DNA of 64,000 nucleotides from Candidatus Saccharimonadales bacterium (GCA_035713075.1 DASTAD010000025.1:10568-74567), one strand, 5' to 3'; shown: positions 28,468 through 56,073, counted from the stretch's first letter. Program-made: numbers and translations. The notes: generated from the letters alone by a model not told the origin.

Positions 28468-28484
28468 ATTATAATAACTTCGAT

Positions 28485-30532: not shown

Positions 30533-30608
30533 CTTTTGCTGTTATTAACTTGTGTATTACTTGAGCTATTTTATCTTAGTTTGGAAGATATTGTTAATAT
30601 TAGGATTT

Positions 30609-32679: not shown

Positions 32680-32770
32680 TAATTATACTAACTTATTTTA
32701 CAGGGTTAATAAGCATTTACAAAAAAATACAGTTTGTCTACAGGTCCAAACTTAATTGTAAAGTGAGGCT

Positions 32771-34303
32771 ATGAAAGTAAAGATAATTAACAGCTTCTTA
32801 AGGATCATTGATTCAAGTAGGTTTTTTAAAGCGATAATGGCGTTATTCGCCGTCGAATCCGCTTGGATCGCCTGTTCCGCCGTCTATCCGCAGGCTTTTG
32901 ACGAGGATTTTCACTTGGGCTTAATCCGGATATATGCCAGGCATTTATCGCCTTTCTTGAGTCAACAGCCAGCCGGGTCAGCGCGCTACGGCGCGGTCGC
33001 GCAGGACCCTTCTTACCTGTTCCATTATCTGATGAGCTTTCCCTACCGCCTGGTGGCGCTTTTAACTAATGATCAAACTTTACAGATAGTCAGTCTGCGC
33101 ATTGTCGACATTATTCTATTCGGCGGCGGGTTAATACTGTTTAAAAAGCTGCTAATGCGCGCCGGAGTAAGTCGCCGGCTTGTAAATGTCTCGCTCCTGA
33201 TCTTCATTTTGATACCAATTGTTCCTCAGTTGGCCGGCCAGATAAATTACGATGATTTGTTATTCCTGATGGTGCCTTTATCCTGCCTTATAGCCTTCGA
33301 TTGCCTCGACGGCTTGAAAAAAAAGATTATTCCCTACCGGTCTTTATTTTTACTCCTGAGTGTCTGTTTGCTTGCTAGCTTAGTTACCTACGCTTTCCTG
33401 CCAGTTTACTTAGCCGAAATCTTATTCCTGATCGGGTTTGCCGCCATTAAATTTTGGCGACATCAATTACCGCTTAAGAATATAGCAGCTCGAAATTTAA
33501 AGGCCAGTTTAACACTACCAAATGTCATCATTGCCCTATTGTTTCTTTTAAGTTCGATTTTGTTCCTCCAGCGATACGGGTTAAATCTAATTCACTATCA
33601 TTCGATAAATCCCGATTGCGCGAAAATACTGAGCGTAAAAGAGTGCAGCCAGTATAAACCCTGGTATTACGATTACACTAACCGTCAAACTGTCAAAAGC
33701 AAGGGCGTCCATGTCTCCCGAAATCTCATTTATTATTTGGGCCAATGGATTTACTGGATGTGGTTCAGGTTATTCTTCGCCGTCAACGGACCCCGCAGCA
33801 GTTTCCGCAATTACCCTCCCCTGCCGCTGCCGGCACTGGGGGCCATTTTACTGACTCTAGGTTCAGCTTACGCCTTAATTAGATACTGGCGAAAGGTATT
33901 AGTGGACAGGTCGTATAATCAGCTTTTGCTGCTTATATTCGCCTTGTATGCGGGTTCGCTATTTATTAAAGGTTTCGTAACCTATACCCATACATCGGTG
34001 CGTGAAAACATGAACGGTCGGTATCTGTTAGCCGTTCTGCCGCTTTTAATACCCGCACTTGTCAGCGCATCCCAGCTAGCACTATCGCGAAAAGAAAAGC
34101 TAAGGCAGTATCTGATGCTTTTTATAGTCGTCATGTTCCTGGAAGGAGGCGGTACGCTGACTTTCATAGTTCGGAGCAATAAATCCTGGGATTGGCACAG
34201 TCCGACCGTCGTGCGCGCTAATAACGCCGCCCGCGACGTCACTCACTACTTAATCATCAAAGGCAGTAAATATTACTCAGGAAAGATGTGGTTCTTCGAT
34301 TAA
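32771..34303 (+). CDS. large polytopic membrane protein, probable GT-C (ArnT/PMT-like) glycosyltransferase
   Basis: 510 aa, more than 10 TM segments, early acidic loop (PQAFDEDFHL), located in a glycosylation neighbourhood. Confidence 0.35.
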   Translation: MKVKIINSFLRIIDSSRFFKAIMALFAVESAWIACSAVYPQAFDEDFHLGLIRIYARHLSPFLSQQPAGSARYGAVAQDPSYLFHYLMSFPYRLVALLTNDQTLQIVSLRIVDIILFGGGLILFKKLLMRAGVSRRLVNVSLLIFILIPIVPQLAGQINYDDLLFLMVPLSCLIAFDCLDGLKKKIIPYRSLFLLLSVCLLASLVTYAFLPVYLAEILFLIGFAAIKFWRHQLPLKNIAARNLKASLTLPNVIIALLFLLSSILFLQRYGLNLIHYHSINPDCAKILSVKECSQYKPWYYDYTNRQTVKSKGVHVSRNLIYYLGQWIYWMWFRLFFAVNGPRSSFRNYPPLPLPALGAILLTLGSAYALIRYWRKVLVDRSYNQLLLLIFALYAGSLFIKGFVTYTHTSVRENMNGRYLLAVLPLLIPALVSASQLALSRKEKLRQYLMLFIVVMFLEGGGTLTFIVRSNKSWDWHSPTVVRANNAARDVTHYLIIKGSKYYSGKMWFFD

Positions 34304-34313
34304 TATTGACGAT

Positions 34314-35291
34314 CTAACTGTCTTCTTCCAAATTGACTAACCGTTCATGATAGCGGTTACGCCTTCCCTCCTCGAGTACGTCTTCTATCAGCGATCTGTT
34401 GACGCTAATTAGATTCGCCACTATCCCTAGAGTAAAGGATAAGAAGGAAGCGTTTAAAAGGACAGTCCCGATAATTAAAGACTGAAGAAAATGAGCGCTT
34501 GATTTGTCATGCTCGACATAAGCCTTATAAACATAATGGACGAATGGTATCAGGCCGCCGATGAACAAAATGACGCTAATGCTCAAAAAGACCATGTAGG
34601 GTTTATACATAGCAAATGAATTGATTAAGGCGACGGCTGACTTTCTGACGTGTTCCCAGTTAGATTTAAACAAGCGAGACTCGCGGGTCTTAGGATTAGT
34701 GTTGATCTTAATCGTCCGGATAGACATCCGTTTGTAATTCGCTTGCAATGTCGTTTCCATGGCGAAATTAAACCGGCCGATTAAATTCATCTTGATAGCC
34801 GCTTCCGAAGTATATGCCCTAAAACCGCTGGTGCTATCAGGCAGATTGGTCTCAGCTGCCGCGTTCATGACTTTTGTGCCGAATTGTTGCAGATATTTCT
34901 TAGTTCTAGAAAAATGCTTAATCTTGTGCACTTGCCTATCGGCGATGACGGTATCGGCTTGACCATCAAGGATCGGCTGGATGAGATCGGGAATTTTTTC
35001 CTGGGGGTACTGATTATCTCCGTCTGTCAGCACTAAGATGTCCGCTCCTAGCTCGAGAGCTCCTTGAATTCCATCGCGCAAGGAATAGGCCAGTCCCCTG
35101 TTTCGGGCGTGGTGGATAAAGTGTCTGACCCCTAGATTCTTGGCGACTTCGACTGTGTCGTCGCTGCAGCCGTCATCTATAATCAGAACCTCTATGGAAT
35201 CAATGCCCTTTATTTTTTTAGGAATTTTAGATAGGACTAAAGGCAAGGTTGCCTCTTCGTTTAAGCAAGGTATCATGACGACGAGTTTCAT
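34314..35291 (-). CDS. family 2 glycosyltransferase (polyprenyl-phosphate sugar synthase-like) with C-terminal TM pair
   Basis: VVMIPCLNEE, IIDDGCSDDT and the TDGDNQY (DxD) motif. Two C-terminal TM helices. Confidence 0.8.
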   Translation of the reverse strand: MKLVVMIPCLNEEATLPLVLSKIPKKIKGIDSIEVLIIDDGCSDDTVEVAKNLGVRHFIHHARNRGLAYSLRDGIQGALELGADILVLTDGDNQYPQEKIPDLIQPILDGQADTVIADRQVHKIKHFSRTKKYLQQFGTKVMNAAAETNLPDSTSGFRAYTSEAAIKMNLIGRFNFAMETTLQANYKRMSIRTIKINTNPKTRESRLFKSNWEHVRKSAVALINSFAMYKPYMVFLSISVILFIGGLIPFVHYVYKAYVEHDKSSAHFLQSLIIGTVLLNASFLSFTLGIVANLISVNRSLIEDVLEEGRRNRYHERLVNLEEDS

Positions 35292-35392
35292 TATGTCTCC
35301 CTAAATCAATACTTCACTTTACTAGCATATTATTGTAATTAAGCTGAAATGTCATTAGTTCAAGCCGATTTTACCAGCCAGAACAGTTCTGT

Positions 35393-36334
35393 TTAGAGCT
35401 CTTCTAATTTTTGCAGCTGTACCGAACCGCGGGCAACGTAAATGTATGCTCCGGCTATGACGATCAGCAGCAGGTAAATGATAATCAGCAGGAAGTTAAG
35501 GTGAAATTTGACAAGTGTCGTAGATATCGATTGCAAGCTCCTGAGCAGCATCGTAATCAGGATCGTCCCGGATATGCCGATAGCGAAGGTTTTGATGCCA
35601 TTTTTGTAGATTATGCCTTTTACGTTGTTCCTGAATACGAAGAGGTTGTAGACCGCTTGAATCCCGAGGAACCAATAGCATAGCCGGGGAATAAGCACCG
35701 TCAGTGTAATCAGCCAATCCGGCTCATAATATGTGGCTACGGCTACACCGTCGGCAGGATAGCGGCGCGACGGATCGTGGAGCGCAAGCATGACGTAAAA
35801 AGAGGCGTAAGCGATGAACAGTAAGATTATGGGCAATGAGGCGCTGAATTTGGTATCGGAAATGACTTTTAATAATCTCTGGGATCCCAGATAAATCAGG
35901 TAAAATCCGACAAGCAGAAGCAGCAGATCGATATATACTTGAAGTCTTACCAGGCTTGCGGTAGAGGCCGGATGGCCAGTGTAGTATTGCTTAAAAAAGT
36001 TAGTCATAACTGACGATATAGGCAGCCATAACACAAGCAAGAATAAACCTTGCGATAAGGTAAAGAAGCCCTGTCCGTCTTTCTCGCCTCTAATTTTAGT
36101 GGCGTAATCGCGAAGCCTGAGAAAACCATAAAACGCTATTAGCCAAATAACGACGTAGGGAATTTCAATCGTCAGTAGCAATAATTTCAGATGGCCAGCG
36201 GTTATGTGATACAGGTGCAGCGTGCTTGGGTTAGGCGGGACGACGAGTGATTGGTAGAGATAAGCAACAATAAGAAGCAGATAAATTAAACTTATTCGGT
36301 TATGTTGCCTGAAGAGTTGCCAGATATTTTTCAT
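35393..36334 (-). CDS. polytopic membrane protein of unknown function
   Basis: 313 aa with 8 TM segments or more. Contains one copy of the 39-bp repeat (codons for LYHITAGHLKLL). Confidence 0.5.
   Translation of the reverse strand: MKNIWQLFRQHNRISLIYLLLIVAYLYQSLVVPPNPSTLHLYHITAGHLKLLLLTIEIPYVVIWLIAFYGFLRLRDYATKIRGEKDGQGFFTLSQGLFLLVLWLPISSVMTNFFKQYYTGHPASTASLVRLQVYIDLLLLLVGFYLIYLGSQRLLKVISDTKFSASLPIILLFIAYASFYVMLALHDPSRRYPADGVAVATYYEPDWLITLTVLIPRLCYWFLGIQAVYNLFVFRNNVKGIIYKNGIKTFAIGISGTILITMLLRSLQSISTTLVKFHLNFLLIIIYLLLIVIAGAYIYVARGSVQLQKLEEL
36178..36216. repeat. 39-bp perfect inverted-repeat copy A (partner at 55739-55777)
   Basis: The reverse complement of 36178-36216 is ACCTGTATCACATAACCGCTGGCCATCTGAAATTATTGC, identical to the plus strand at 55739-55777. 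Confidence 0.9.
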
Positions 36335-36422
36335 TGCTAGGCCAAATTAAGCCGCTCCCTGCGTCGTATTAGATATGTAAGTAAATATTCTAATACAACC
36401 GGTGATTTAAATCTACGCCGCT

Positions 36423-36818
36423 TTAAACTGTAGGCAGTTGACTTAAAATTAAATGCCTTTGGCGAGGTCCATCGAGTTCTACCAAAACGATACGCTGCCA
36501 GGCCCCTAGATCAAAGTCAGAATTTTTAAATGGCAAGCTAAGCGACGCTCCTAAGATAAAAGACCATAGGTGGTCCGGAAAATGCTCCGGTTGATGAGGG
36601 TGCCTCCATTTTAGCTGAGGGGTTAATTTCTCAATTGCAGCGAGATAATCTGCGTCAGTTCCGGGGTCCATATCGGCTATAGCGACCGCGGCAGTCGTAT
36701 GCTTAATAAAAACATGGGCTATGCCGTCGCCGGATAATTGGCGGGAAAGCAGATCGGTTATATCAATGACCTGCCTTTTTTTAGTTGTCGAAACAGTTAT
36801 TTCCATGTCTGCCATCAT
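36423..36818 (-). CDS. yjbQ: YjbQ/UPF0047 family protein (secondary thiamine-phosphate synthase)
   Basis: VFIKHTTAAVAIADMDPG and HPHQPEHFPDHL motifs of UPF0047. Confidence 0.8.
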   Translation of the reverse strand: MMADMEITVSTTKKRQVIDITDLLSRQLSGDGIAHVFIKHTTAAVAIADMDPGTDADYLAAIEKLTPQLKWRHPHQPEHFPDHLWSFILGASLSLPFKNSDFDLGAWQRIVLVELDGPRQRHLILSQLPTV

Positions 36819-36952
36819 GAACGTTTAATCAGGGAAACTCAGCGTCAAATCCCACACCTGTCATTAAAATTATTACTGAAGTCTTTCCTTTAAAGGAACT
36901 ATTATCTCTCATAGATGAGGATATTTACTAAGTAAAACAATGGGAGTGCTAG

Positions 36953-37222
36953 ATGGTTAAAAAATGGTCGGGGGATGTTACTCAAAATAGCGACGCCTTG
37001 GATTTGGAGGAAGGCGTCTTTACTCTAAATGACCCCCGCCAGATCGCCAGGTCTTTGAAATACTCAGCCGAAGTCAGCAAGCGCAGGAAAACCGATCCCT
37101 TTCGCTCGGCCATGTCGATGCTTAATTTTTACATAAACCGCGGCGGAGATAATATACCCGCCTCCCAGCTTAGAATCTTAAATCAAGCTAAGGTTGAACT
37201 AAGGAAAGAGTTTGGTCGATAA
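36953..37222 (+). CDS. DUF3175 domain protein
   Basis: SDALDLEEGVF...DPRQIARSLKYSAEVSKRRKTDPFRSAMSMLNFYINRGG matches the DUF3175 pattern. Confidence 0.75.
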   Translation: MVKKWSGDVTQNSDALDLEEGVFTLNDPRQIARSLKYSAEVSKRRKTDPFRSAMSMLNFYINRGGDNIPASQLRILNQAKVELRKEFGR

Positions 37223-37338
37223 GGCCAGATAATCACTTAAGCCTTTAACATATTAGGCGGGTGGTATCAATTAGAAAACCGTATACAAAAAATAAGGGTT
37301 GTCTTATATAATGTGGCGACATATAAAGAGGCAAAAAA

Positions 37339-38535
37339 TTGGAACATAAAACCGTTTCTACGACGACGAAATCACTGAAGGTGCGCCATGAACGCGCCAT
37401 GGTCGAACTGGAGCGTTATAAGATTCTCGTCGATACCATTGAAGACTACGCTATTTTTTTTATCGACCCTGTAGGCTATATCATGTCATGGAACCGGGGA
37501 GCCCAGAAGACCAAAGGCTATACCGAAGACGAGATAATCGGCGAGCATTTTTCGAAATTTTATCTTGAAGATGACGTGATCGCTAAAAAGCCCGAGCGTG
37601 AACTTGAGCTGGCGCTGAAAATGGGACGGGTAGAGGATGAGGATTGGCGGGTTCGTAAAGACGGATCGACATTCTGGGCGAATGTCGTCATTACTGCCCT
37701 CTATGACTCCAACCATAACCATATTGGTTTCGCGAAAGTGACCCGTGACTTAACTGAGAGGAAAATCCATGAGGACGCCCTCAGAAAAGCCAATACCCAG
37801 CTGGTGTCTCAGCAGCAAGAACTGGAGCGACTAAACGTTTCGAAAGACGAATTCATTTCTCTCGCCTCGCATCAGCTGAGGACCCCCTCGACAGCGATAA
37901 AGCAACTTCTTGGCATGCTGAAGGAAGGTTTCTACGGCGAAATACCCGACGATATTCAAACTGTTATCACAAAGGCCTATACAAGCAATGAGAGGCTCAT
38001 AAACACCGTTAACAGCCTGCTTAGAGTTGCTCAACTCGATGCCGGTAAGGTGATACTGAAGAAAGTGCCAGTCAATATGGGCCAGTTGCTTCACGATATC
38101 TACGAGGAACAAGCTGATACTATTAAAAGCCGTAACCAGGAATTTAAATTATCCTTGCCGGTTAAGCAGACCGTCCATATGGAAGCCGATTACGATAACC
38201 TCCGTATGGCAATCAGCAATCTGCTAGACAATGCCACTAAGTACACGTCCGAAGGCGGCAAAATAGTCGTATCATTAAAGCGGGAAGCTAAAAAAATAAC
38301 TATCTGCGTGCAGGATAACGGCGTGGGCATAAAAAAACAGGACATCAATAAGTTGTTTGAAAAGTTTGTCCGCATACCTAATGAACTTTCGCAAAAAGTT
38401 GGCGGCAGCGGATTAGGTCTCTATTGGGTAAGAAAGATTATCGAGCTTCATGGCGGCAAAATTAAAGTCGCTTCCGATAAAAAGAACGGAACCCAGTTCA
38501 CGATTATCTTTCCTGTTGACAGTTCCTATGCGTAG
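37339..38535 (+). CDS. PAS-domain sensor histidine kinase (cytoplasmic)
   Basis: PAS region (GYIMSWNRGAQKTKGYTEDEIIG), H-box SHQLRTP, N-box LLDNATKYT, G-boxes DNGVGI and GSGLGL. TTG start after AAAGAGG. Confidence 0.88.
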   Translation: MEHKTVSTTTKSLKVRHERAMVELERYKILVDTIEDYAIFFIDPVGYIMSWNRGAQKTKGYTEDEIIGEHFSKFYLEDDVIAKKPERELELALKMGRVEDEDWRVRKDGSTFWANVVITALYDSNHNHIGFAKVTRDLTERKIHEDALRKANTQLVSQQQELERLNVSKDEFISLASHQLRTPSTAIKQLLGMLKEGFYGEIPDDIQTVITKAYTSNERLINTVNSLLRVAQLDAGKVILKKVPVNMGQLLHDIYEEQADTIKSRNQEFKLSLPVKQTVHMEADYDNLRMAISNLLDNATKYTSEGGKIVVSLKREAKKITICVQDNGVGIKKQDINKLFEKFVRIPNELSQKVGGSGLGLYWVRKIIELHGGKIKVASDKKNGTQFTIIFPVDSSYA

Positions 38536-38902
38536 GATACTGGTCGTCGAGGATGACGACCTACTTAGAGAAAGCTACAAGATAATATTGTCATCTGGGC
38601 CCTATTTCGTCGAAACGGCCGAAAACGGAAAAGTTGGACTTCAAAGATATAAGCAGAACAATTATGACTTAGTGCTTTTAGATATCATGATGCCGGTGAT
38701 GGGAGGAGTCGAATTTTTAAAAAGCGTAGCTTCCCTACCGCGGAAGTCAAAAATAATCTTGCTGACTAACCTGTCTGACGGACCGGAAGTTGAAGCCGCC
38801 CTTAAAGCCGGCGCCGTGGGACATCTCTTAAAAGCTGATATTTCTCCGAAACAGCTGATAAGTAAAGTGCGTTACGAAGTTGAAGCAACCCGATATGATT
38901 AG
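38528..38902 (+). CDS. stand-alone response-regulator receiver domain
   Basis: MRRILVVEDDD, LVLLDIMMP, and no output domain. The ATG at 38528 overlaps the kinase stop by 8 nt. Paralogous to 27119-27544. Confidence 0.85.
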   Translation: MRRILVVEDDDLLRESYKIILSSGPYFVETAENGKVGLQRYKQNNYDLVLLDIMMPVMGGVEFLKSVASLPRKSKIILLTNLSDGPEVEAALKAGAVGHLLKADISPKQLISKVRYEVEATRYD

Positions 38903-39062
38903 GGTCCTTATAATAAATTTAAGTGGTATCAATCGCCCTTAGAGGCCTCAAAAGAATATCCTCACCACTGTTAAACAGCAGTAAAAGTTAAATTCTTCAT
39001 AGTGAAATCTAAGCGTTACCCATATTCTTAGGGTTACAGTAAACAAGGAGGCACATAACAGT

Positions 39063-47267: not shown

Positions 47268-48260
47268 ATGAGCCATGAACGATTAGGTGATCTTATTACA
47301 AATAACCGGGCAGCAGTAGCTGCAAGCGTTGCGGTCCTGGCACTTGGAGCAGGGGCAACTCTTAGAACCAATACCGCCAAAGCCGACACTGTAACCGACA
47401 CGCCGGCAGAGTGCATGGCCGACGGGTTGTATTCGCTTACTGGTGGCATGATGCAAATTGATTCAACAGGCACAATTACTCAGCTGGAAGTAGCTGGAGC
47501 GGCATTGCCAGCGGATTGTGACGGACAAGTCTGGCGCACTGTCACTGTCGAGCAGCTTGCCGGCACAGATCCACAAAACCTATCTCCCAATACAAATTCG
47601 TATGATGTTTTTGATGGCAATGGCGCCTTTGATAACACGATCAACGCGCAGATGATTAACCCTTACGCCTGCGGAACTTATTACCAACAAGAAACTACTT
47701 TTTCGGTAACTACTGTCAGTCCTAATGCAGGTTTAGCGCCAGAAAGTAAGACCTACTTGAGTACAGAGTCTGAGCAGAATTGCCAACCGGCAACCACTGG
47801 CAGCGGAAGCGGTGCACCTAGTGGCAGCGGTTCGGGAACTACTGTATCGCCACAGCCGAGCGAGGCTCAGAAAATAAAGAGCTGTGAGATTGACGCCGTA
47901 GATAGCGTCCGCTACATCTCGATGCAGTATCTTAAGCCGGCACATCATCAGTACAAACGGGTCAGACAAATTGTTAAAGCCGACGCTTTACCGAAGTCCT
48001 GCGATAATCTTGTTCAGAGGAAAATAGAAGTCCAAGCCAGATTAGGCCGAAAGGGTCACGTTAAACCTGATAGTCGTTACGAGACACTTGATACCCGCGA
48101 TGGAAAGATTTACGAATACATCAATCAAACACTAAAGCACGCCTGGAGAAGCGGCGAGAAAACCCAGCAGGCAGTAAAAGTTATTGCTACTCCTATGAAG
48201 GCTTATGACGGCTACGGCGTTAAGCCTATGACTAAACAGTACTTCACTAAAGCCGCCTAA
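47268..48260 (+). CDS. secreted two-domain hypothetical protein with Gly/Ser linker
   Basis: Signal/anchor AAVAASVAVLALGAGA. Central TGSGSGAPSGSGSGTT linker. A duplicated Cys-containing motif (ALPADCDGQVWRTVTVEQ and ALPKSCDNLVQRKIEVQ). The ATG at 47268 follows GAAGGAAGAG. Confidence 0.55.
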   Translation: MSHERLGDLITNNRAAVAASVAVLALGAGATLRTNTAKADTVTDTPAECMADGLYSLTGGMMQIDSTGTITQLEVAGAALPADCDGQVWRTVTVEQLAGTDPQNLSPNTNSYDVFDGNGAFDNTINAQMINPYACGTYYQQETTFSVTTVSPNAGLAPESKTYLSTESEQNCQPATTGSGSGAPSGSGSGTTVSPQPSEAQKIKSCEIDAVDSVRYISMQYLKPAHHQYKRVRQIVKADALPKSCDNLVQRKIEVQARLGRKGHVKPDSRYETLDTRDGKIYEYINQTLKHAWRSGEKTQQAVKVIATPMKAYDGYGVKPMTKQYFTKAA

Positions 48261-48631
48261 GTTTTAGTAGCACATTTAGAGACTTGGACGCTAGAAATGT
48301 GCGGAGTGTATTCGGATTAATTTAAAATAGCTTCATGCATATGCGGCATCAATGCTATAGGGCGTTAATTAGGAATCGCTATTTTACTTCAGGACGGTTG
48401 TATGGGTTGACTACATTCAATTAAAGCGGCGGACTGGTAACCGGCTGCTTGGCGGCTAAATGTCTGGCTTTTCCTAGTAGAGTACGGTTATACAGTTATC
48501 TTTCTGCGCCACTAGCATTAGCTGTACAGCCTTTGAAATCAGTTATGATCTTAAGATAAGCCCCGCAAGTTTTTAAGAACGTTGCCCCGTTAGAAGAAAA
48601 AACAAGCCCATTAACTAAATCAGTTTTTATA

Positions 48632-49309
48632 TTACCCGTCGGTAAAATGATATCGGAAGCTATAGTGGCCGATGCTCCCAGGCTGCCAATTTTTAGATGA
48701 TTGGTATAATCCTTTCAAAAAATTTTGTTTTTGTAGATCATTGAGACTTTGGTTATTCTTATGCACTTCGCAGAGAGCTAATGTACCAAGCCATAAGGAC
48801 GTGTTCAGCCGGTGTTGATCTTCTACTTTAGCCATTTCAGAATCGACCTCGAGCACAACTTTATAAGATTTCGGAAAAAGAATCGGAAAAAGGCTAGTCA
48901 GTTTATTTTTCTTCTTTTTATTTAGCATTATTGATATAGGCTGGTTAAGCCCGGCAGCGCTTGCTCCATCTACTAGCTTTAAATAGTTAGCATCAACTGT
49001 TGCCGGCTTTTCGAATGGAGCTAGTGGGCCCGAACTTAATATAGGAACCAAAATGCCAGTTTCTTCTAGCTCAGTCGATTTTCCATATTCTGTTTCGCAG
49101 ATCAGTTCCACCTGCCGTGAAGGTGGTGACGTGATTCTTAGTTTTCGGATCCTATTGATAATGTAATTATGAATATTATATTTACGATTTGCTAACTTCC
49201 ATCTGACATTGTTAAAGTTCATATTAGAAATTTCAAACTCATGATTATCTCTTACCTGCCAACCGGATGTATTAATAGCATCGATGAAACTACTTGATTC
49301 TTGTGGCAA
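48632..49309 (-). CDS. island orphan protein (225 aa)
   Basis: ORF only. TTG start is uncertain (the next Met is at 49222). No recognisable motif. AT-rich. Confidence 0.4.
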   Translation of the reverse strand: MPQESSSFIDAINTSGWQVRDNHEFEISNMNFNNVRWKLANRKYNIHNYIINRIRKLRITSPPSRQVELICETEYGKSTELEETGILVPILSSGPLAPFEKPATVDANYLKLVDGASAAGLNQPISIMLNKKKKNKLTSLFPILFPKSYKVVLEVDSEMAKVEDQHRLNTSLWLGTLALCEVHKNNQSLNDLQKQNFLKGLYQSSKNWQPGSIGHYSFRYHFTDG

Positions 49310-49475
49310 TTCCTAAATTTCGTAAGGTAGTTGTTGGGAGGGCATAGGGGATATATTTATCCTGTCACCTCGGTTGAAATCTTGCATAGCACATTCATAG
49401 CAAGTATGGCTTTACCAGAAGTTATAGTTGCAACTTCAGCTTGGGTCAGCCAAGAATAGCAGAACAAAATCTTAT

Positions 49476-49506
49476 GGTCCCTCCCTTAGTGGGCGACCTT
49501 TGCAAC
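49476..49506 (-). promoter_or_regulatory. island intergenic motif, copy 1
   Basis: Gene-strand reading is GTTGCAAAGGTCGCCCACTAAGGGAGGGACC. It lies just downstream of the terminator of the preceding unit and about 170 nt upstream of the 225-aa ORF. Confidence 0.7.
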
Positions 49507-49552
49507 ATTAATGAAGAAGTGCCATATTGTAAGTTTTTATTAGTTCCGAATT

Positions 49553-49574
49553 AAAAAGCCCGGCAAAGCCGAGC
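49553..49574 (-). terminator. rho-independent terminator of the Gly-rich peptide gene
   Basis: Gene-strand GCTCGGC-TTT-GCCGGGC-TTTTT is a 7-bp stem (one G-U), 23 nt after the stop at 49597. Confidence 0.7.
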
Positions 49575-49596
49575 TCTTTAGTGTTTTATTAAGACC

Positions 49597-49917
49597 TTAA
49601 TTTGGTAGCGTACAGTCCCCAGAAACAGCTGAGTTATTATAACCAGCTGCACCAGTGCCAGCGGGCACCCCGCCACCTATGCTACGTGCAGTACCATCAG
49701 TACCAAGAGTACCAAAATTACCGTTTGTGTTCGCAAAGGCACCGTGACAATATCCGCTCGAGCTTGTGGGCCCGTAATATTGGTTCACACCTGCTGCAAA
49801 AGTAGCGCCACTTGCGCCGGCCACAATAGTTGCTGTTGCAATAACTCCATATATGTATTTCTTTGTATTAGTTTTAATCTTTTCAACACCAGTTTCTACT
49901 TTATAAATGTAGTTCAC
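49597..49917 (-). CDS. small secreted Gly-rich two-Cys peptide (bacteriocin-like)
   Basis: The SD AAGGAGG sits 5 nt upstream of the GTG at 49917. Signal-like KKYIYGVIATATIVAGASGATFA-AG. The mature part is about 63 aa, Gly/Ser/Thr/Asn-rich, with Cys near both ends. Confidence 0.6.
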   Translation of the reverse strand: MNYIYKVETGVEKIKTNTKKYIYGVIATATIVAGASGATFAAGVNQYYGPTSSSGYCHGAFANTNGNFGTLGTDGTARSIGGGVPAGTGAAGYNNSAVSGDCTLPN

Positions 49918-49982
49918 GGACACCTCCTTGGTTAGTATTTAATATTATAATCCTCTGCGTCAAATATAGTATGTACTCATTA

Positions 49983-50020
49983 TGCTTATGCTTGCTCCAC
50001 CTAGTGGACGTACTTCGAAC
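49983..50020 (-). promoter_or_regulatory. island intergenic motif, copy 2 (extended)
   Basis: Gene-strand reading is GTTCGAAGTACGTCCACTAGGTGGAGCAAGCATAAGCA. It shares an extra 13 nt (GCAAGCATAAGCA) with copy 3. Confidence 0.8.
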
Positions 50021-50028
50021 TTTTGTGA

Positions 50029-50280
50029 TTACTCCCTATGTTCAATCAACCCTTGTTTAAGGGACTCAAACGCCTCATTCTTAAGGTCTTGCCCGACTTT
50101 TTGTTTTGCGGCCCATTGTTCTGGTGTAACATCAGCTTCTGTAATTCTGTCGGGAAAATGCTCGAGTGTTTTTTCATCAAGCTCAAACATACATGCAGCT
50201 AGACGCCCCACTTCCTCGGGCGTCAATGGCTCTTCACCTACCGGTAACGCCTCGTCAGGCAATGGCCCTTCATATTGCAT
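50029..50280 (-). CDS. island small acidic protein (83 aa)
   Basis: ORF with ATG start, no SD, highly acidic (PDEALPVGEEPLTPEEV...). No family recognised. Confidence 0.45.
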   Translation of the reverse strand: MQYEGPLPDEALPVGEEPLTPEEVGRLAACMFELDEKTLEHFPDRITEADVTPEQWAAKQKVGQDLKNEAFESLKQGLIEHRE

Positions 50281-50315
50281 AGATCTAAAATATCAAAAAA
50301 GCACTAAATACAAAT

Positions 50316-50355
50316 TGCTTATGCTTGCATCCCTCTAGTTGACGTTCTTTGCAAC
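50316..50355 (-). promoter_or_regulatory. island intergenic motif, copy 3 (extended)
   Basis: Gene-strand reading is GTTGCAAAGAACGTCAACTAGAGGGATGCAAGCATAAGCA. Its distal edge is 75 nt upstream of the ATG at 50280. Confidence 0.8.
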
Positions 50356-50362
50356 TATAATA

Positions 50363-52657
50363 CTAATCGAGTTCGATCTTAGAATAATATATTTCAAGTG
50401 GTGGTTTAGATGGATCGTAATTTTCTCTTACATAAGTAGAGTTCCTTTGTTTACCAGTTGGGTCAAGTGTTTTAAGCCTTTCGCTTTCCTTGGCCAAATC
50501 TCTCATTTGTTCCTCAAGGCAATACCTAGCTTGCTCCTCACTAAACACGAATTTTTTGCCATCAGTTTCTCGTATCCTTAAATAAGCGTAATGCCCCATG
50601 TTGGCCGATTTACCATTTTCATCATTAATAAGGCCTTCGGAAGTATCAATTTCGTTAGCGCATGACCACTCTTTTACCAATTTGAGTATAAGATTTTCAT
50701 AGTAACCTTTCATGGTAGGTATTCCGAAGCTCATCGGGCCACTGTCAGTAATATAAAAATCGCGATCAAGCTTTAGCTCAACGATACCATCGTCTAAATA
50801 AAATGACGATATAATGCGGTTTTGTGTTGGGTCGTAGCGTAAGTTCACGGATTCCAAGCCTGTTTCTTTAAGATTCTTCGGCATAACAAACTTTAACGAC
50901 CGGCGCCCTAGAAAACGTTTTTGCTCTTCTCTAATAGTTTGCCTCAAATGGTTGTTTGCTTCATCCATATCTTTACTGATAGCTTCTGCGGTGTCAAAAG
51001 AAGAGCTCGGGGTGCTATTATCGCGGGATATATGCCTTGCATAATTAATTAACAACAATTGCAAAGGGGTATGAGTTTTTATATCCGTTGCTATACAAGG
51101 CCTATAAATAGTGATGCCGTCTACATAAACCTTTTCACCCAAAGGTTTATAAACTAGATGCATCCTGCCTGTTTTTTCAAAGCTACTGATCCCTAGCTCA
51201 TTAGCCATTAGTGCAACTCCCAATATCTCAGCAGTGAGACCGCCAGCTCGCTCTTGCATTTCTTCAGCCTCATTTTTTGGAGTAGGCCACTGCTTAGTCG
51301 GGAAATAAATATCTACAGCGAGGGTAGGGCTAAGAGGTAAAGACAGACCGTCAACACCTCCTTTTAGATGCCTTGAATCGGCACCGGCGGCACTTTCTAT
51401 TATTTGCATAGCTGCCATCACGCTATACGCATAAGGTGCAAAATGTTGCATGCGCTTGTGAAATAGCTCCGATTTAAGCGATAACGCTTCTAGCTCATCT
51501 GGCATCTGAATTTGCCCGAACTCAAGCTGGTCACCTTCTATATGACTTATAATTACCGGGTCGAAAGCCATTAGCCCTCTTTCACTTTTCTCAGCCAGAT
51601 CTAGCAGCAACTTATGAGTAGGCCCATAGATCCTACTGCTGCCATGTCTTTCTTGATGCAGTCTTGTAATTGCATCTTTTTCTTTTTGTGTACTCTCAAA
51701 ACCGATACCAGTAATATACTGGTTTAAATTATCAAATATTGTCTTTGTCTGCGCTGCATCAACAGCAGCTTGCAAATCGTTGTTTCCGTAGAACGATGAG
51801 TCAACTTCTTTCATGACTGCGTATATATAAGTAGACGACATATACGGCTCAACTAAAGAGGCTATCCGTACAATCTTACTCAATGCCGGCTGATTATCAA
51901 GTAGCTCAAATGAGGCACGGGCTAGATTATTATGGATTGCTCCGAAATTAGGTATATTATACCTAGTTGAAAAAATACTCTTTAAAATCGCTTCGAAATT
52001 TGGAGCACTGGGCTGGCCTTGAACGGATCCTTCAATTATTGCAGCAAAATTATTTGGGTTAGCCGTAACTGCCCCACCATGCTTTTCTGCATAATTGGCG
52101 CTACTTAAGAAAATTTCATCCGCTAGCTCAGCGTCGTCGCAAAGCCTGGAAGTAATAAAATCCAATAGGTCTGCTCGAAGTACTACATGTTTATCGCCAG
52201 TAACATCACTGAAGTCCGTAAATTGTCTGGCGAACTGGCGTTTAGCTAGATGCTCTTGGTGTTCACGTTTCGACCGTTTTTTGGTTGTAATTTTGCCTAG
52301 GTCAACTTGATACTGCTCGTAGTCTTTAGCGTATTTTATTCTAACTTTTCTGCGTAGCTGTTGTTCCGGTGTAAGTATGATGGGCTGCTCGGGTACGTTT
52401 GGCTCAATGAGATTTTCATCTTTACTGTCGGCCTCATCAGATACATCGGCTTTTTGCTCAGCAAGTTGGATTAATTGTCTTGCCAAAACTCCAATTTGCT
52501 CCTGAGTTCGAGTAGATTCGGCATATTCAGGCTGCAACTTAAACTCTTCCTCATACCACGAACGAATATGGGGATCTGGTTCAGCAGCTAAATCTTGACT
52601 AAACTCATTTAAAAACTCGTGCGACTCACCGACGTTCACAAAATAAAAATAACACAT
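50363..52657 (-). CDS. island large orphan protein (764 aa)
   Basis: Uninterrupted 2.3-kb ORF. Acidic coiled N-terminal region. No P-loop, polymerase, nuclease or HTH motif that I can recognise. It starts 13 nt after the 84-aa ORF. Confidence 0.6.
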   Translation of the reverse strand: MCYFYFVNVGESHEFLNEFSQDLAAEPDPHIRSWYEEEFKLQPEYAESTRTQEQIGVLARQLIQLAEQKADVSDEADSKDENLIEPNVPEQPIILTPEQQLRRKVRIKYAKDYEQYQVDLGKITTKKRSKREHQEHLAKRQFARQFTDFSDVTGDKHVVLRADLLDFITSRLCDDAELADEIFLSSANYAEKHGGAVTANPNNFAAIIEGSVQGQPSAPNFEAILKSIFSTRYNIPNFGAIHNNLARASFELLDNQPALSKIVRIASLVEPYMSSTYIYAVMKEVDSSFYGNNDLQAAVDAAQTKTIFDNLNQYITGIGFESTQKEKDAITRLHQERHGSSRIYGPTHKLLLDLAEKSERGLMAFDPVIISHIEGDQLEFGQIQMPDELEALSLKSELFHKRMQHFAPYAYSVMAAMQIIESAAGADSRHLKGGVDGLSLPLSPTLAVDIYFPTKQWPTPKNEAEEMQERAGGLTAEILGVALMANELGISSFEKTGRMHLVYKPLGEKVYVDGITIYRPCIATDIKTHTPLQLLLINYARHISRDNSTPSSSFDTAEAISKDMDEANNHLRQTIREEQKRFLGRRSLKFVMPKNLKETGLESVNLRYDPTQNRIISSFYLDDGIVELKLDRDFYITDSGPMSFGIPTMKGYYENLILKLVKEWSCANEIDTSEGLINDENGKSANMGHYAYLRIRETDGKKFVFSEEQARYCLEEQMRDLAKESERLKTLDPTGKQRNSTYVRENYDPSKPPLEIYYSKIELD

Positions 52658-52669
52658 TTAGTGCTAAAG

Positions 52670-52924
52670 TCAATACTTTTTAAACTGGCAGTCACTAAGT
52701 TCGCCTATGGGCTCGTATTGATAAAGTCGCTGAACGTCAACTTCTGACAGGTTAAGCTGCTCGTCTCTTATAATCCTCGCTAAGTTAGAGGTGTAGTCTA
52801 TCCAATCTTTATCATCCGGTATCTTAAAAGCATCTTCAACACGCCATTCTGATATTGGCTCATATGGACCGTGTATTACGGGCATAGACCCGGTAAAGTC
52901 AGGAGGGGTAGTTGTTTCTCCCAT
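52670..52924 (-). CDS. island small acidic protein (84 aa)
   Basis: ATG start with no SD. The hexamer AATAAT lies 7 nt upstream of the ATG. Confidence 0.45.
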   Translation of the reverse strand: MGETTTPPDFTGSMPVIHGPYEPISEWRVEDAFKIPDDKDWIDYTSNLARIIRDEQLNLSEVDVQRLYQYEPIGELSDCQFKKY

Positions 52925-53185
52925 AATACTTATTATTCTGCACCATCTGAAGATAGATGCAAGGGCAAGTTAGCTAGAACCGACCAGAAAGGCCAGAGTT
53001 AAAGAGAAACTTCTTGCGAGGCGGATCTGTATCTATTAGATATATGAAATTTGCTCTGGCAGTAGCCCAGAATGTATTCAAAACACGTAAATTAATGGGA
53101 GGATAGAAAATAGCAAACCAAACTACTTATATAGATAAAAATATAAGGGTTGGAAGTGAGCTGAAACAGGCTCAGCGTTCTATTT

Positions 53186-53212
53186 GGGTCCCCTATTGGA
53201 CGCACTTCGTAC
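53186..53212 (-). promoter_or_regulatory. island intergenic motif, copy 4
   Basis: Gene-strand reading is GTACGAAGTGCGTCCAATAGGGGACCC. It lies immediately after the stop of the 151-aa ORF and about 260 nt upstream of the 84-aa ORF. Confidence 0.7.
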
Positions 53213-53667
53213 TAGTTGGTGGGTTTCTTGGGATGATTCAACCGATCTAAATGATGTACAAGTATTGTTGCGGGATGCGGCTGATCAGTTAACGCGCTGT
53301 TAATAATGCGGCGCCGGTCTTCCGTTATATCAAGCATATTGTGCAGGAAAATGTCTCGGGAATCATCGGTTGGTAGCTTGTCATGACATATAGCCATTAC
53401 CTCCCTGCCAAATTCAGTTACTCTGATCATAGTGGCTGCTGACTCATCCCCAGGATTTCTAGCTAATTTTAGTGAGCTGCTTTCATGGTCAGCGTAATTG
53501 ACAAGCCCGTAGGCTTCCAATAATGCTGCGGTACCGAAAGGCTGGACGCCAAGATTCACTCTAGCCTGCTCGTCAGGTACACTTGCCAGGAACCCGAGCC
53601 GTAGTATGACATCATAAGGCAATGAAGCCGCAACCTGTTCAGGTGACGAATCTTCGTAATTTGACAT
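53212..53667 (-). CDS. island 151-aa protein, possible winged-helix DNA-binding fold
   Basis: I prefer the ATG at 53667 (MSNYEDSS...), because the ORF-track TTG start at 53754 would read through motif copy 5. LLEAYGLVNY...ATMIRVTEFGREVM resembles the MarR-type helix-wing pattern. Weak. Confidence 0.45.
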   Translation of the reverse strand: MSNYEDSSPEQVAASLPYDVILRLGFLASVPDEQARVNLGVQPFGTAALLEAYGLVNYADHESSSLKLARNPGDESAATMIRVTEFGREVMAICHDKLPTDDSRDIFLHNMLDITEDRRRIINSALTDQPHPATILVHHLDRLNHPKKPTN

Positions 53668-53713
53668 AACTGAAATTATACTATATGAGCTGAGAATCAA
53701 AAGTGTATATGGT

Positions 53714-53743
53714 GGGCTCCCCTTAGGGGACGTACTTCGCAAC
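53714..53743 (-). promoter_or_regulatory. island intergenic motif, copy 5
   Basis: Gene-strand reading is GTTGCGAAGTACGTCCCCTAAGGGGAGCCC. Its distal edge is 76 nt upstream of the ATG at 53667. Confidence 0.8.
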
Positions 53744-53802
53744 TTTGAAGACAAGATTGAATGCCTAGTCGTATTTAAATTCCTTAATAAATTTGCGCTT
53801 CC

Positions 53803-54561
53803 CTATATGTAGGACCTTTGACGCAAGTCGTTCTTTCGTTTGAGTGATGCGAACGCTTTTACTAGCATTTTCGTGTCAACGGGCTGAGTTTCTTCGCCGT
53901 TGTCTATGCCATCATCTACAGCATCGGCGATCACTCCCTCGATGGCCACTTTTAAGTCGGCCCCAGTTAAGCCATCGGAAACTGCAACCAGTTCTGAGAC
54001 ATCAATACCATTGAACACCGGTACCTCTGCTCTATTGGTAAAATACTTCACCCATTTTGTAATAATTTCGGCTCTACCCTCTGTGCCTGGCGGACTAACT
54101 TCCATCACTTCGTTAAAGCGGCCAGAGCGTATTACGGCTGCATCTACATTAACTGCGTCATTTGTTGCCCCAAGGATTAGGCAGTTAGGGTAATAGTCAT
54201 TCAACGCTGTCAAAAATTCGCTCGTCATTTTGCGCTCCCAAGTCATCATGTGCATACCGCCCCTAGAAGCTGCCAGCCCTTCAAGTTCATCAATTAGCAG
54301 GACGACATTATGTTTTTCACCGAGAACCTTGAGCAAATCAAATAATCCAGCAATGTTCTTCTCGGCCTCGCCTGCCCACATACTTTCAATATCGCTAACT
54401 TTGGCTGACAAATAAATGTCTCCTACCTCATGTGCAGCAGCATCAGCCAACATTGTTTTACCACATCCTGGCGGCCCAATTAGTAGTCCTGTTAACTTGG
54501 GTGAAATCCCAGCTTGCAAGTACCGCTCAGGATATTTTGCTCGCTTTACAAGTCTTTGCAT
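53803..54561 (-). CDS. AAA+ ATPase module (classic clade, Cdc48/FtsH-like), 3' part of a frameshifted gene
   Basis: Walker A GPPGCGKT, Walker B VLLIDELE, sensor-1 region ILGATN, arginine finger region VIRSGRF. Confidence 0.85.
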   Translation of the reverse strand: MQRLVKRAKYPERYLQAGISPKLTGLLIGPPGCGKTMLADAAAHEVGDIYLSAKVSDIESMWAGEAEKNIAGLFDLLKVLGEKHNVVLLIDELEGLAASRGGMHMMTWERKMTSEFLTALNDYYPNCLILGATNDAVNVDAAVIRSGRFNEVMEVSPPGTEGRAEIITKWVKYFTNRAEVPVFNGIDVSELVAVSDGLTGADLKVAIEGVIADAVDDGIDNGEETQPVDTKMLVKAFASLKRKNDLRQRSYI

Positions 54562-55679
54562 CTGCTTTTTTCATCAGACAGCCCACCCACCATATCGAAT
54601 GTTATTTCAGGGACTGGCTGTACAGTCTGCAGGAACAACTCTCGTTGCCTATTATCATTTACTTCTTGGGGCACTTCTTTATGTTTATCCTTATCCTTAT
54701 CGAGGTATTCGTCTTTTAGGTCTTCGCCTTCGTGCTGATTAGCGCGGGGATGAAATATCATTTCCGGCAATGGTTCATCAAGCCATGTTCTATTGAGATT
54801 TTCAAGTATTTGAGGAAAACTGCGCTGCAATAGAGCTAACTGCATATTAAGCCTATCTTCCAGTGTTTTCCTCCGAACTTCGGTTTGAACGACAGATTCT
54901 TTATCGTCCTTTTCAACAGGCAGGCCCTTAAATCCAAACTTTATTAAGTAAGTAAGCCCTGCTAATTCTGTGGTTAGGACTTCATCCTCTGCTTCCCCTG
55001 CCCAGTACGTTCCAACTCCGCCGTCTTCGCGAGCAAAGTGCCTAGGTTCGCGAGCGCCACCAGTTGGATCTAAGTCCTCAACCACATATTTGATACCAGC
55101 TAATTTTGCAATCCCAGTAGAACCACCTATGAAAGCTGATGGTTTAAACGCGACTGCTGCAACCATATGAGATGCCGCAGTGTATGGGTCTGATTCAATT
55201 GAGATTTGCAAGCGCTCCATAGCGCTATGTTCATAAGGCTCAAAAGCCTTGACTGCGGACCATCTATTTTTTGGTGACCTGCCTCTGTGCCTAGTTTGTG
55301 AGGGCTTTGCCATCCCTTCGATAAAATCATCCCTGTCCTCGAACTCTATGCGAAGCGCAGTATTATAAACGTGCTCTTGTAGCTTTGCTTGAACGGCCGG
55401 ATCGCTGAGGTCGGGTAATTCTTCTTCCTCACCTGCTAGCTGTAACAAGACACTTATTGTTTCAACTGAATCCTCTCGCCTTTTGGCGGCTTCCCTAAGA
55501 GCCGTGGGTACGCTAAGTGCGCCAAGATGGTGAACAATGCCGATGACTTCCTCGTATAAGGCATGCTCAGCTTCTTCTAGCTCGTGATCCTCGGCTTCAA
55601 TGTCTGATCTTGTGTCTGGAAATTCCTCGGGAGTGTCGCTCATTCCCATAGTATCGCTAAGACTACATGATTTTTGCAA
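54546..55679 (-). CDS. N-terminal unknown domain of the same AAA+ protein, 5' part of a frameshifted gene
   Basis: It ends in ITFDMVGGLSDEK, the conserved pre-Walker-A element of classic AAA+ modules. The likely start is the ATG at 55649 (MGMSDTPEEF), not the TTG at 55679. Confidence 0.7.
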   Translation of the reverse strand: MQKSCSLSDTMGMSDTPEEFPDTRSDIEAEDHELEEAEHALYEEVIGIVHHLGALSVPTALREAAKRREDSVETISVLLQLAGEEEELPDLSDPAVQAKLQEHVYNTALRIEFEDRDDFIEGMAKPSQTRHRGRSPKNRWSAVKAFEPYEHSAMERLQISIESDPYTAASHMVAAVAFKPSAFIGGSTGIAKLAGIKYVVEDLDPTGGAREPRHFAREDGGVGTYWAGEAEDEVLTTELAGLTYLIKFGFKGLPVEKDDKESVVQTEVRRKTLEDRLNMQLALLQRSFPQILENLNRTWLDEPLPEMIFHPRANQHEGEDLKDEYLDKDKDKHKEVPQEVNDNRQRELFLQTVQPVPEITFDMVGGLSDEKSRCKDL

Positions 55680-55738
55680 GCATTAGCGAAATAAATATAA
55701 TAATTGTGTAGTATAATTTCGCCGTATGGACCACGCTT

Positions 55739-55777
55739 ACCTGTATCACATAACCGCTGGCCATCTGAAATTATTGC
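55739..55777. repeat. 39-bp perfect inverted-repeat copy B (partner at 36178-36216)
   Basis: ACCTGTATCACATAACCGCTGGCCATCTGAAATTATTGC. An extra CACGCT match lies just outside after a short mismatch/indel. Confidence 0.9.
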
Positions 55778-55995
55778 GGATCAATATCGAACAAGTCGAG
55801 GATGATTACTACGGAACGGCGTCTCACCTGTTATTACTAGCAAAGCAGTTTCCTAAGCTATTCGAGAAGGCTGATCTTGAGCAAAAAAGGTCTTTAATCA
55901 ACATGATACTTTCGAACTTGGTACTAGATGGCAAATTACTTCGGTGGGAACTAAAAAAGCCATTCGATACGATGGCTTTTTATGGCAAAAATGGA
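55778..55995 (+). pseudogene. C-terminal remnant of a large serine recombinase
   Basis: DDYYGTASHLLLLAKQFPKLFEKADLEQKRSLINMILSNLVLDGKLLRWELKKPFDTMAF resembles the C-terminal tail of CPR large serine recombinases (from memory). The catalytic, recombinase and zinc-ribbon domains are absent. ORF 55726-56040 begins inside the 39-bp repeat and runs on into the antisense of tRNA-Asn. Confidence 0.5.
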
Positions 55996-55998
55996 AAT

Positions 55999-56073
55999 TG
56001 GCTCCGGGGACTGGATTCGAACCAGCGACCTAGTGGTTAACAGCCACCCGCTCTACCGCTGAGCTACCCCGGA
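55999..56073 (-). tRNA. tRNA-Asn (anticodon GTT), CCA encoded
   Basis: The reverse complement is TCCGGGGTAGCTCAGCGGTAGAGCGGGTGGCTGTTAACCACTAGGTCGCTGGTTCGAATCCAGTCCCCGGAGCCA, a canonical cloverleaf with anticodon loop CTGTTAA. Confidence 0.92.

Follow-up and report, generated by a model that had tools for sequence, protein, structure and literature searches.

A block of about 7.7 kb at positions 48261-55998 (the island) in a 64,000-nucleotide (nt) stretch of Candidatus Saccharimonadales bacterium DNA (GCA_035713075.1, DASTAD010000025.1:10568-74567; the whole stretch is referred to as the window) is probably all that is left, in immobile form, of small integrative elements (one, but more likely several) driven by a large serine recombinase (LSR) at a tRNA-Asn gene. 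The family to which these elements belong was seen here only in Saccharimonadales-type contigs. That an element with a decayed LSR had integrated at tRNA-Asn, as proposed by an earlier reading of the sequence alone (the original prediction), is borne out by full-length homologues of the recombinase at the same locus in relatives. Throughout, loci fetched for comparison (metagenome or genome contigs) are labelled L followed by three digits, and homologous proteins P followed by four.

The putative integration target is tRNA-Asn(GTT) (55999-56073, minus strand; ARAGORN, Rfam tRNA score 70.5 bits), whose 3' end (...CCCCGGAGCCA) points toward the island. Against it, on the plus strand, lies a C-terminal LSR remnant (55778-56040, approximately the last 87 codons), identified by homology to an LSR of about 495 amino acids (aa): in a tblastn comparison it matched residues 395-492 (the last 98 residues) of the LSR from L095 with 72% identity (E 2e-40). 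Homology to the recombinase family starts at INIEQVEDDYYG (family alignment A1), and the final 14 codons of the remnant together with its stop are the antisense of the tRNA 3' end (NWLRGLDSNQRPSG followed by the stop). The same antisense ending was found in other loci with a tRNA junction, TGG-CTC (W-L) being the reverse complement of GAG-CCA. The relatives found with residues 19-104 of the fragment were all short (74-145 aa), several likewise ending in NWLRGLDSNQRPSG, and matches to PDB and phage records were weak, the phage one being the C-terminus of a 522-aa phage LSR. A metagenome scan with an alignment of the short relatives yielded 30 loci, in many of which the tail closes an open frame of about 490-510 aa starting with KAYLLARVSTDDQ, and it is because of these full-length homologues that we consider the recombinase identity of the fragment settled. 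The LSRs of L095 and L104 carry the Pfam domains Resolvase, Recombinase and Zn_ribbon_recom, and a junction between a tRNA 3' end and an integrase gene or remnant was also present in 12 other fetched loci.

The window itself holds no LSR catalytic (resolvase) domain, since the full L095 LSR matched it by tblastn at residues 395-492 only; Pfam recognised no domain in the open reading frame (ORF) at 55726-56040 that contains the remnant, and homologues of Rep, of the helix-turn-helix (HTH) gene and of the LSR N-terminus were likewise absent from the window. Given that the N-terminal catalytic domain is missing, we regard the gene as a remnant and not as a functional member of the family. The ORF is moreover spurious at its start: its first 18 codons are supplied by a 47-nt copy (55732-55777, plus strand; 39 nt exact) of the reverse complement of positions 36178-36224 (blastn), which sits precisely at the LSR truncation point and whose source lies 19.5 kb away in an intact gene for a multi-pass membrane protein of 313 aa. 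Of the "recombinase fragment" ORF listed by the original prediction, the C-terminal part is therefore true LSR and the first 18 codons are not, while the boundary that it described, with the tRNA-Asn 3' end facing the block and a genuine recombinase C-terminus against it, stands. Two Logan contigs from different samples (L001 and L002, with identical smpB) end within tRNA-Asn at window positions 56047-56048, and the Logan contig covering the island (L091) ends inside the 47-nt repeat at 55768; these ends fit graph branching at sequences common to strains or elements in those samples.

Intact elements occupy the same site in relatives. L095 (a 368-kb contig) and L104 (445 kb) carry tRNA-Asn, smpB, GH-like, GT2, cobO, grx and atpB as in the window, encode SmpB proteins 66-67% identical to that of the window and share the last 30 nt of tRNA-Asn exactly, with an intact LSR adjoining the tRNA. 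Their cargo is unrelated to that of the window and to each other's: L095 carries HTH_36, DUF805, AAA_13 and DUF2130 followed by CdiA_C, and L104 carries a G2P-type Rep, GIY-YIG, G5 and an SDH-type protease. A third locus (L011) shares the smpB-side synteny, has no recombinase and, as read from translations, encodes Fic, methyltransferase and NUDIX-like genes past the tRNA. The original prediction had named, as an outcome that would count against it, the presence of the same block at this locus in all relatives; what these three loci carry past tRNA-Asn is instead entirely different from the window's genes, as expected of a genomic island, and we conclude from this that the stretch past tRNA-Asn next to smpB is a hotspot of gene turnover.

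Across the family, intact elements span 5-9 kb and consist of the LSR, a G2P-type Rep or HTH_36 gene, a variable cargo of 3-7 kb encoded on the same strand as the tRNA and a distal motif of about 45 nt (TTGCGAAGTACGTCCACTAG-GGGAGCCA). The gene beside the LSR is conserved, being either Rep or HTH_36 together with a 173-aa protein. In 8/8 loci with a full-length LSR at a tRNA and at least 5 kb of upstream sequence (L095, L098, L101, L102, L104, L105, L110 and L115), the motif was found on the tRNA strand 5.1-9.2 kb away (E at most 1e-5). These dimensions bear on whether the island could be a prophage remnant. LSRs are common as phage integrases, and the weak phage-database match of the fragment is to one of them. 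But PHROGs gave no structural, packaging or lysis match in the island, its only hit being to an ATPase module described below; intact relatives reach 5-9 kb only and carry Rep or HTH genes; and scans of IMG/VR found neither the LSR tail nor the motif. We attach a vanishingly small probability to this explanation.

Within the window the same motif recurs five times. Repeat finding revealed a direct repeat of about 30 nt in the island, which pattern searches and nhmmer extended to five copies, each of them in an island spacer and on the minus strand, whereas the remaining 56 kb of the window contained no copy; when pattern counts were compared with shuffled sequences, 0/100 shuffles reached the observed count. 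The copy nearest the tRNA (TTCAAAGTTGCGAAGTACGTCCCCTAAGGGGAGCC; 53695-53754, E 7e-12) lies 54 nt past the stop of the AAA+ ATPase gene. The second (53164-53215) overlaps the stop of a 151-aa gene and scored E 1.3e-4 against the whole set and 1e-7 against its spacer alone. The third (50307-50369, E 4.5e-9) and fourth (49975-50032, E 1.5e-8) each start 2 nt past a stop, of a 764-aa and an 83-aa gene respectively, and the fifth and most degenerate (49467-49516, E 3.6e-6) lies 84 nt past the stop of a 108-aa gene. By nhmmer the window copies are more degenerate than those in other genomes. Outside the window, the motif (consensus AAAGTTGCGAAGTACGTCCACTAGGGGGAGCCA) turned up in 14 more of the fetched loci, namely L003 and 13 from the recombinase-tail scan, and in none of the 77 that their record titles assign to other phyla.

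The terminal hexamer of the motif follows the tRNA at which the element resides. It reads GAGCCA in 6/6 elements at tRNA-Asn (3' end ...GGAGCCA) and CTGCCA in all three copies from elements at tRNA-Trp (3' end ...CCCTGCCA), while the body of the motif is constant. Such covariation is expected if a short crossover core is common to the sites of element and host, and we therefore read the motif copies as attachment-site scars. From its position and this covariation we infer that the motif is the putative distal attachment site of the element, a repeated site of the kind that delimits integrative elements. The LSR would join an element site, made up of the end of the recombinase gene, the core and the motif, to the tRNA 3' terminus, the two sites sharing only the core TTGGCTCC / GGAGCCAA. 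Insertion would leave the tRNA intact, fuse the LSR C-terminus to antisense tRNA and leave the motif as the distal scar, and later elements would push earlier ones outward. In the window, the integration and replication module would have been deleted save for the last 87 or so LSR codons, and five degraded scars would divide the block into modules of one or two genes.

Fusions between LSR tails and motifs are consistent with successive insertion. Where no tRNA follows an LSR tail, the tail runs into the reverse-complement motif in the same register, most clearly in L108 and more weakly in L107, L109, L112, L117 and L119 (L109 and L112 by eye only). In L108 (8819-19330), tRNA-Asn with a 34-aa LSR remnant is followed, after 9 kb, by a motif fused to the 3' end of an intact second LSR, and given that tRNA-Asn and its remnant lie 9 kb beyond this second recombinase we interpret the arrangement as a tandem pair of elements. 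Similarly, in L111, L112 and L122 tRNA-Asn lies 0.2-2 kb beyond an older remnant. Decay of a single element can be followed between L092 (932-3890) and L095 (3968-10297), which contain the same element (AAA_13 97% and DUF2130 91% identical): L092 has lost LSR codons 1-350, the HTH_36 gene, the 173-aa gene and DUF805, so that a 140-aa remnant adjoins the cargo at tRNA-Asn. Judged by sequence comparison, L092 appears to be an early stage of the same type of decay as the window. Separately, related LSRs end at the 3' end of tRNA-Gln, -Trp, -Asp or -Gly in L103, L110, L115, L120, L121, L123 and L124; in L123 and L124 the LSR ends right beside the tRNA 3' end, in the others of this group inside the tRNA.

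These fusions and the behaviour of the hexamer also speak to whether the island is a native, fast-evolving chromosomal region with the motif as a terminator or operator peculiar to this lineage and the recombinase fragment as a relic of unrelated origin. Many motif copies do lie just past stops and 37-90 nt before the next gene. Yet the motif has no consensus RNA fold (RNAalifold predicted no pairs over 20 copies) and no Rfam match; its last six nucleotides change with the tRNA that the adjacent LSR targets; in L108 it is joined to the 3' end of an LSR and precedes no gene that it could regulate; and the composition of the island is deviant. A native region is thus very improbable. We also considered the motif as a tRNA mimic and rejected this, its alignment to the tRNA being marginal and only the terminal core convincingly common to both.

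Base composition sets the island apart from the host backbone, as is usual for tRNA-anchored islands, although modestly and in patches. Its GC content is 42.5%, compared with 46.6% in the remaining window, and it is the lowest-GC segment of its size (minimum of 44.1% in 409 non-overlapping same-size windows; mean 46.6, standard deviation 1.3). Tetranucleotide distance is maximal across 48-53 kb (z = 2.9-3.4), the sole outliers of the window. Between 48.3 and 52.7 kb the GC content is 41%, and in the AAA+ gene it is a backbone-like 46%. Third-position GC is more uniform, at 0.32-0.44 in 8/8 island ORFs, the AAA+ gene included, against 0.52 +/- 0.04 in the backbone; it is at least 0.48 in 15/18 flanking ORFs, those below being smpB (0.40), the ORF at 36423-36818 (0.42) and the secreted-protein gene (0.46). 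The low GC claimed by the original prediction therefore holds, both in its five 60-nt counts, which we reproduced (35.0, 40.0 and 38.3% inside; 45.0 and 56.7% outside), and in the windowed GC and tetranucleotide analyses it had suggested; ORF calling likewise placed every island ORF on the minus strand, as it had stated. Its long intergenic spacers (about 290-370 bp) are only partly recovered: three spacers measure at least 287 bp, and the full range is 12-371 bp. Elsewhere in the window, a broader stretch at 26001-39000 has slightly low GC (about 43-45%) and a normal tetranucleotide distance.

Read outward from the tRNA, the island starts with the LSR remnant; the 47-nt copy, the AAA+ gene and scar 1 come next, then a 151-aa gene and scar 2, an 84-aa and a 764-aa gene and scar 3, an 83-aa gene and scar 4, a 108-aa gene and scar 5, and finally a 225-aa gene past which no scar was detected. 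Because nhmmer found no motif copy in 47900-48700, the left end of the island can be placed no more closely than within 48261-48631; a stretch near 48.48 kb noted by eye (CGTACTCTACTAGGAAAAGCCA) was considered as a sixth scar left of the 225-aa gene and found to be unsupported by nhmmer.

Several observations speak against the proposed origin or sit uneasily with simple serial insertion. Recombination at the motif was not observed, and alignment of the motif with the tRNA 3' half (T-arm) is marginal (109/2000 shuffles reach the score, p about 0.05). Two window scars share with the L102 and L107 copies 12 nt past the core (AAGCATAAGCAC), which in L102 resemble the native tRNA flank; strict serial insertion predicts these native-flank nucleotides at the oldest scar only, yet two scars carry them. 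The older window scars, unlike L108 and L112, have no recombinase C-terminal remnants, and three window modules (those of the 83-, 108- and 151-aa genes) measure 340-530 bp, far below any intact element seen. No empty site was found in a close relative. A search with smpB returned three Saccharibacteria loci (52-65% identity) whose left flanks are unrelated to the window's, and as the left flanks of the nearest genomes (SmpB 65-67%) differ, comparison does not define the left end of the island either. Lastly, an array of four sites in L003 has neither a tRNA nor an LSR of the family within 10 kb.

The L003 array (8700-13170) contains four motif copies, each 3-20 nt past the stop of a co-oriented gene. 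Its genes are a methyltransferase, a 122-aa gene, an RHH-PIN pair followed by a homologue of the 764-aa protein, and a 234-aa gene, and TTGACA-like hexamers can be read just past three of the four sites.

In view of the misfits with serial insertion (the missing recombinase tails, the shared 12 nt, the small modules and L003) we keep in consideration a cassette-type mechanism (site-by-site exchange or insertion into old scars). In its full form, the island would be an LSR-serviced cassette array, in which modules of one or two genes, each ending in a 45-nt site, are captured, excised or shuffled in trans by the recombinase of a resident or visiting element, the sites being the working recombination sites of an integron-like gene-capture platform in Saccharibacteria that exchanges cassettes at tRNA-Asn and at sites already in place. 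The very small modules, the 12 nt shared past the core by several copies and the lack of LSR remnants between the older window modules would all follow, and the sites are placed as cassette ends might be: 2 nt past the stop in two window copies, overlapping the stop in a third, and at comparable positions in the independent L003 array, where one site lies 3 nt past the stop of the 764-aa homologue just as the window's third copy follows the 764-aa gene, and where the hexamers past several sites could be promoter-like. Set against this, the 764-aa gene is the only cassette seen in more than one array or order, junctions of circles or of empty sites were not observed, L003 itself lacks a nearby tRNA or family LSR, in the window the sites have degenerated and the recombinase beside them is no longer functional, and promoter-like matches in the island are at chance level. 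To our knowledge, moreover, there is no known case of a large serine recombinase that recombines two identical sites of the scar type. A cassette array thus seems to us unlikely, if worth keeping in mind, and we retain the decayed remainder of LSR-driven elements as the probable origin of the island.

Turning to the cargo, the original prediction had singled out the island as a candidate undescribed defence, toxin or secretion system built around an AAA+ ATPase and the 764-aa protein. The island proteins (annotated at NCBI as VFN51_03015 to 03050) were searched against Pfam, NCBIfam, PHROGs and PADLOC, and as had been claimed the AAA module was the only match in these four libraries. The AAA+ gene (53803-55679, minus strand) corresponds to a product of about 625 aa, with an N-domain of about 370 aa and one classic-clade AAA+ module (ORFs, Pfam), but a -1 frameshift at an A6 run at 54566-54571 (T6 on the plus strand) breaks it into two ORFs that overlap (54546-55679 and 53803-54561). 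Adding one A at this run restores a 625-aa ORF, and no such interruption occurs in the homologues P0007 (624 aa) and P0008 (654 aa), alignment placing the break between GGLSDEK and RLVKRAKYPE. The identical frameshift is present in the Logan contig L091 (SRR25158217), a 100% match to the window. The original description of an AAA+ ATPase with a 370-aa N-domain is accordingly right as to both parts and wrong in treating the gene as unbroken. Programmed frameshifting at the A6 run was considered and dismissed: the zero-frame sequence GAA AAA AGC is not a tandem-slippage heptamer, for which reason we treat the frameshift as a mutation, and low-level slippage at the run may occur.

The module itself is well preserved. 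It matches Pfam AAA (E 2.4e-25), and its translation reads intact Walker A (GPPGCGKT), Walker B (LLIDELE) and sensor 1 (GATN) motifs, arginine fingers (RSGRF) and an aromatic pore loop (MWAG), as expected of the classic clade, the reading frame being broken upstream of the module. In our reading, the protein would have worked as a substrate-threading unfoldase, a single ring with an N-terminal recognition domain of its own. Structure prediction for that domain gave a predicted local distance difference test score (pLDDT) of 55, and a fold search returned no credible match. The two homologues of the full fusion lie in differing contexts, one next to tRNA-Pro (L006), the other followed by a Peptidase_S24 gene (L008). 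In L006, tRNA-Pro (11993-12068) stands directly after the P0008 gene with a tRNA-gene cluster nearby, and in view of this neighbourhood the gene may itself be island cargo.

The 764-aa protein (50363-52657, minus strand; identical to NCBI entry VFN51_03030, though an exact look-up gave no record of it) belongs to an uncharacterised family with homologues in contigs of Saccharimonadia-like gene content. An exhaustive search gave 83 clusters at E at most 0.001, about 30 of them full length and the remainder sharing only the C-terminal 190 or so residues. Pfam recognised no domain in the protein or in 10 relatives (one sub-threshold match in one relative), and a PDB profile search gave no match. 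An AlphaFold2 model had a mean pLDDT of 69, and Foldseek searches of PDB and BFVD gave nothing below E 0.07, only generic helical repeats with a template modelling (TM) score of at most 0.15. The homology and fold searches suggested by the original prediction for this protein and for the AAA+ N-domain found no known family for either and yielded no usable fold. The C-terminal 190 or so residues (about 540-760; TSEG, NMGH, RNSTYVRE) form a domain common to several dozen clusters (P0045-P0095) of otherwise different proteins, mostly 540-990 aa long; no Pfam domain in the 10 relatives and no PDB match corresponds to it.

Where their context is known, relatives of the 764-aa protein stand alone, between sbcB and uvrA in L004 and L005, or, in L003 (56% identical), behind the RHH-PIN pair of the motif array; those of L009 and L010 are on short contigs. 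None of the family members with known context lies beside the AAA+ protein, and relatives of the two proteins never occurred together in the fetched loci, so that the co-occurrence the original prediction had proposed to look for, and with it the undescribed system, is unsupported. More generally, the idea of a single system can appeal to the common orientation of the genes, to the defence-like look of the cargo of sister elements (AAA_13, DUF2130, CdiA_C) and to the matches of the AAA module to phrog_3757 (E 1.4e-34) and to the PADLOC models of IetA (E 1.4e-27), the ATPase of the IetAS system (IetA AAA+ ATPase and IetS protease), which is its best PADLOC score. The IetA alignment covers profile positions 103-321 of 374 only, however, i.e., just the generic ATPase core; the N-domain is unrelated; the NCBIfam IteA_antiphage model scored 77.8 bits, below its cut-off of 510; and no IetS-type protease partner is present, with no protease domain found in any island protein (Pfam, PADLOC, NCBIfam) and no protease gene adjacent. 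Given also that island proteins never co-occur in the fetched loci, that the AAA+ gene is frameshifted and that five scars place the genes in different modules, we consider one undescribed system highly unlikely. The scar-separated modules, the frameshifted AAA+ gene and the absence of a mobility module lead us to conclude that the cargo consists of independent, lineage-restricted accessory genes and not of parts of one machine.

The remaining genes of the island are small, and all lie on its minus strand. The 151-aa acidic orphan (53212-53667) forms a one-gene module and has no family match in the four libraries. It had been listed as a 180-aa ORF (TTG at 53754); the ORF exists, but most likely begins at the ATG at 53667, giving a 151-aa product that matches the NCBI annotation. 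An 84-aa acidic orphan with an isoelectric point (pI) of 4.3 (52670-52924) lies 12 nt upstream of the 764-aa gene, and an 83-aa acidic orphan (50029-50280, pI 4.4) makes up a one-gene module of about 340 bp. The 108-aa predicted secreted Gly-rich peptide (49597-49923; GTG start with AAGGAGG upstream) has no family match, and the 225-aa basic orphan (48632-49309), beyond the last recognisable scar, has the lowest GC content in the block (38%). Four of the five small proteins are on record solely for the same metagenome-assembled genome or a Logan contig, in clusters of 1-2 sequences. By exact look-up, the sequence of the 108-aa peptide is absent from protein records, and the secreted protein has no record. 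None of the small proteins recurred in any fetched locus.

Compared by layout rather than by gene homology, the closest described analogues of these elements are the tycheposons of Prochlorococcus, small tRNA-inserted elements that carry a site-specific integrase, cargo and in many cases a replication gene, whose successive insertions, separated by partial tRNAs, push older elements into the island, and whose degenerate remnants (fragmented integrases, partial tRNA copies) build up such islands; an LSR occurs in 27/937 elements of this type (bioRxiv 10.1101/2020.12.28.424599). The Saccharimonadales elements differ in that their host belongs to the candidate phyla radiation (CPR), every element seen uses an LSR, and the LSR ORF ends inside the tRNA. 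The scar is here an element-borne arm of about 45 nt with only some 8 nt common to the tRNA, and not a partial tRNA copy, as would follow from a crossover at the extreme tRNA 3' terminus. As for LSR-based systems, the closest analogue is the staphylococcal cassette chromosome (SCC, including SCCmec), which is inserted by LSRs at the 3' end of one conserved gene; its composite islands are tandem, are delimited by repeated integration-site sequences and commonly include recombinase-less pseudo-elements. They differ from the present elements in their target (rlmH, here a tRNA), in size (20-60 kb, here 5-9 kb, with window modules down to 340 bp) and in their CcrAB pair where a single LSR is found here. 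With integron arrays the island shares co-oriented one-gene units of mostly unknown function, each with a conserved recombination-type site, near a recombinase gene. The associated recombinase, in contrast, is a serine enzyme and not the tyrosine recombinase IntI (Pfam found no tyrosine recombinase domain in the island), the array is tRNA-anchored, and the 20 motif copies examined show no attC-like folded structure, their conservation being one of primary sequence. In the portion of the literature open to full-text search, we found no description of such elements in Saccharibacteria or other CPR bacteria. What sets the present elements apart from these analogues is the host phylum, the exclusive use of an LSR ending inside the tRNA, the inferred crossover at the extreme 3' end and the small size of the modules.

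Mobile elements of Saccharibacteria and the CPR are poorly described, and the present analysis defines a family of 5-9 kb with an LSR and a Rep or HTH gene, whose attachment sites can be read from sequence, the host site as the tRNA 3' terminus and the element site as the end of the recombinase gene plus the 45-nt arm. The LSR with its pair of sites is a candidate tool for site-specific integration in Saccharibacteria. If true, the cassette reading would mean that a counterpart of the integron, based on another family of enzymes, operates in a phylum whose genomes are tiny and for which few ways of gaining genes are known. For the window, the candidate new system gives way to stranded cargo genes, one of them already a pseudogene; the pair L092 and L095 indicates how such cargo becomes fixed through loss of the mobility module, and in these reduced genomes tRNA-Asn beside smpB stands out as a gene-turnover hotspot.

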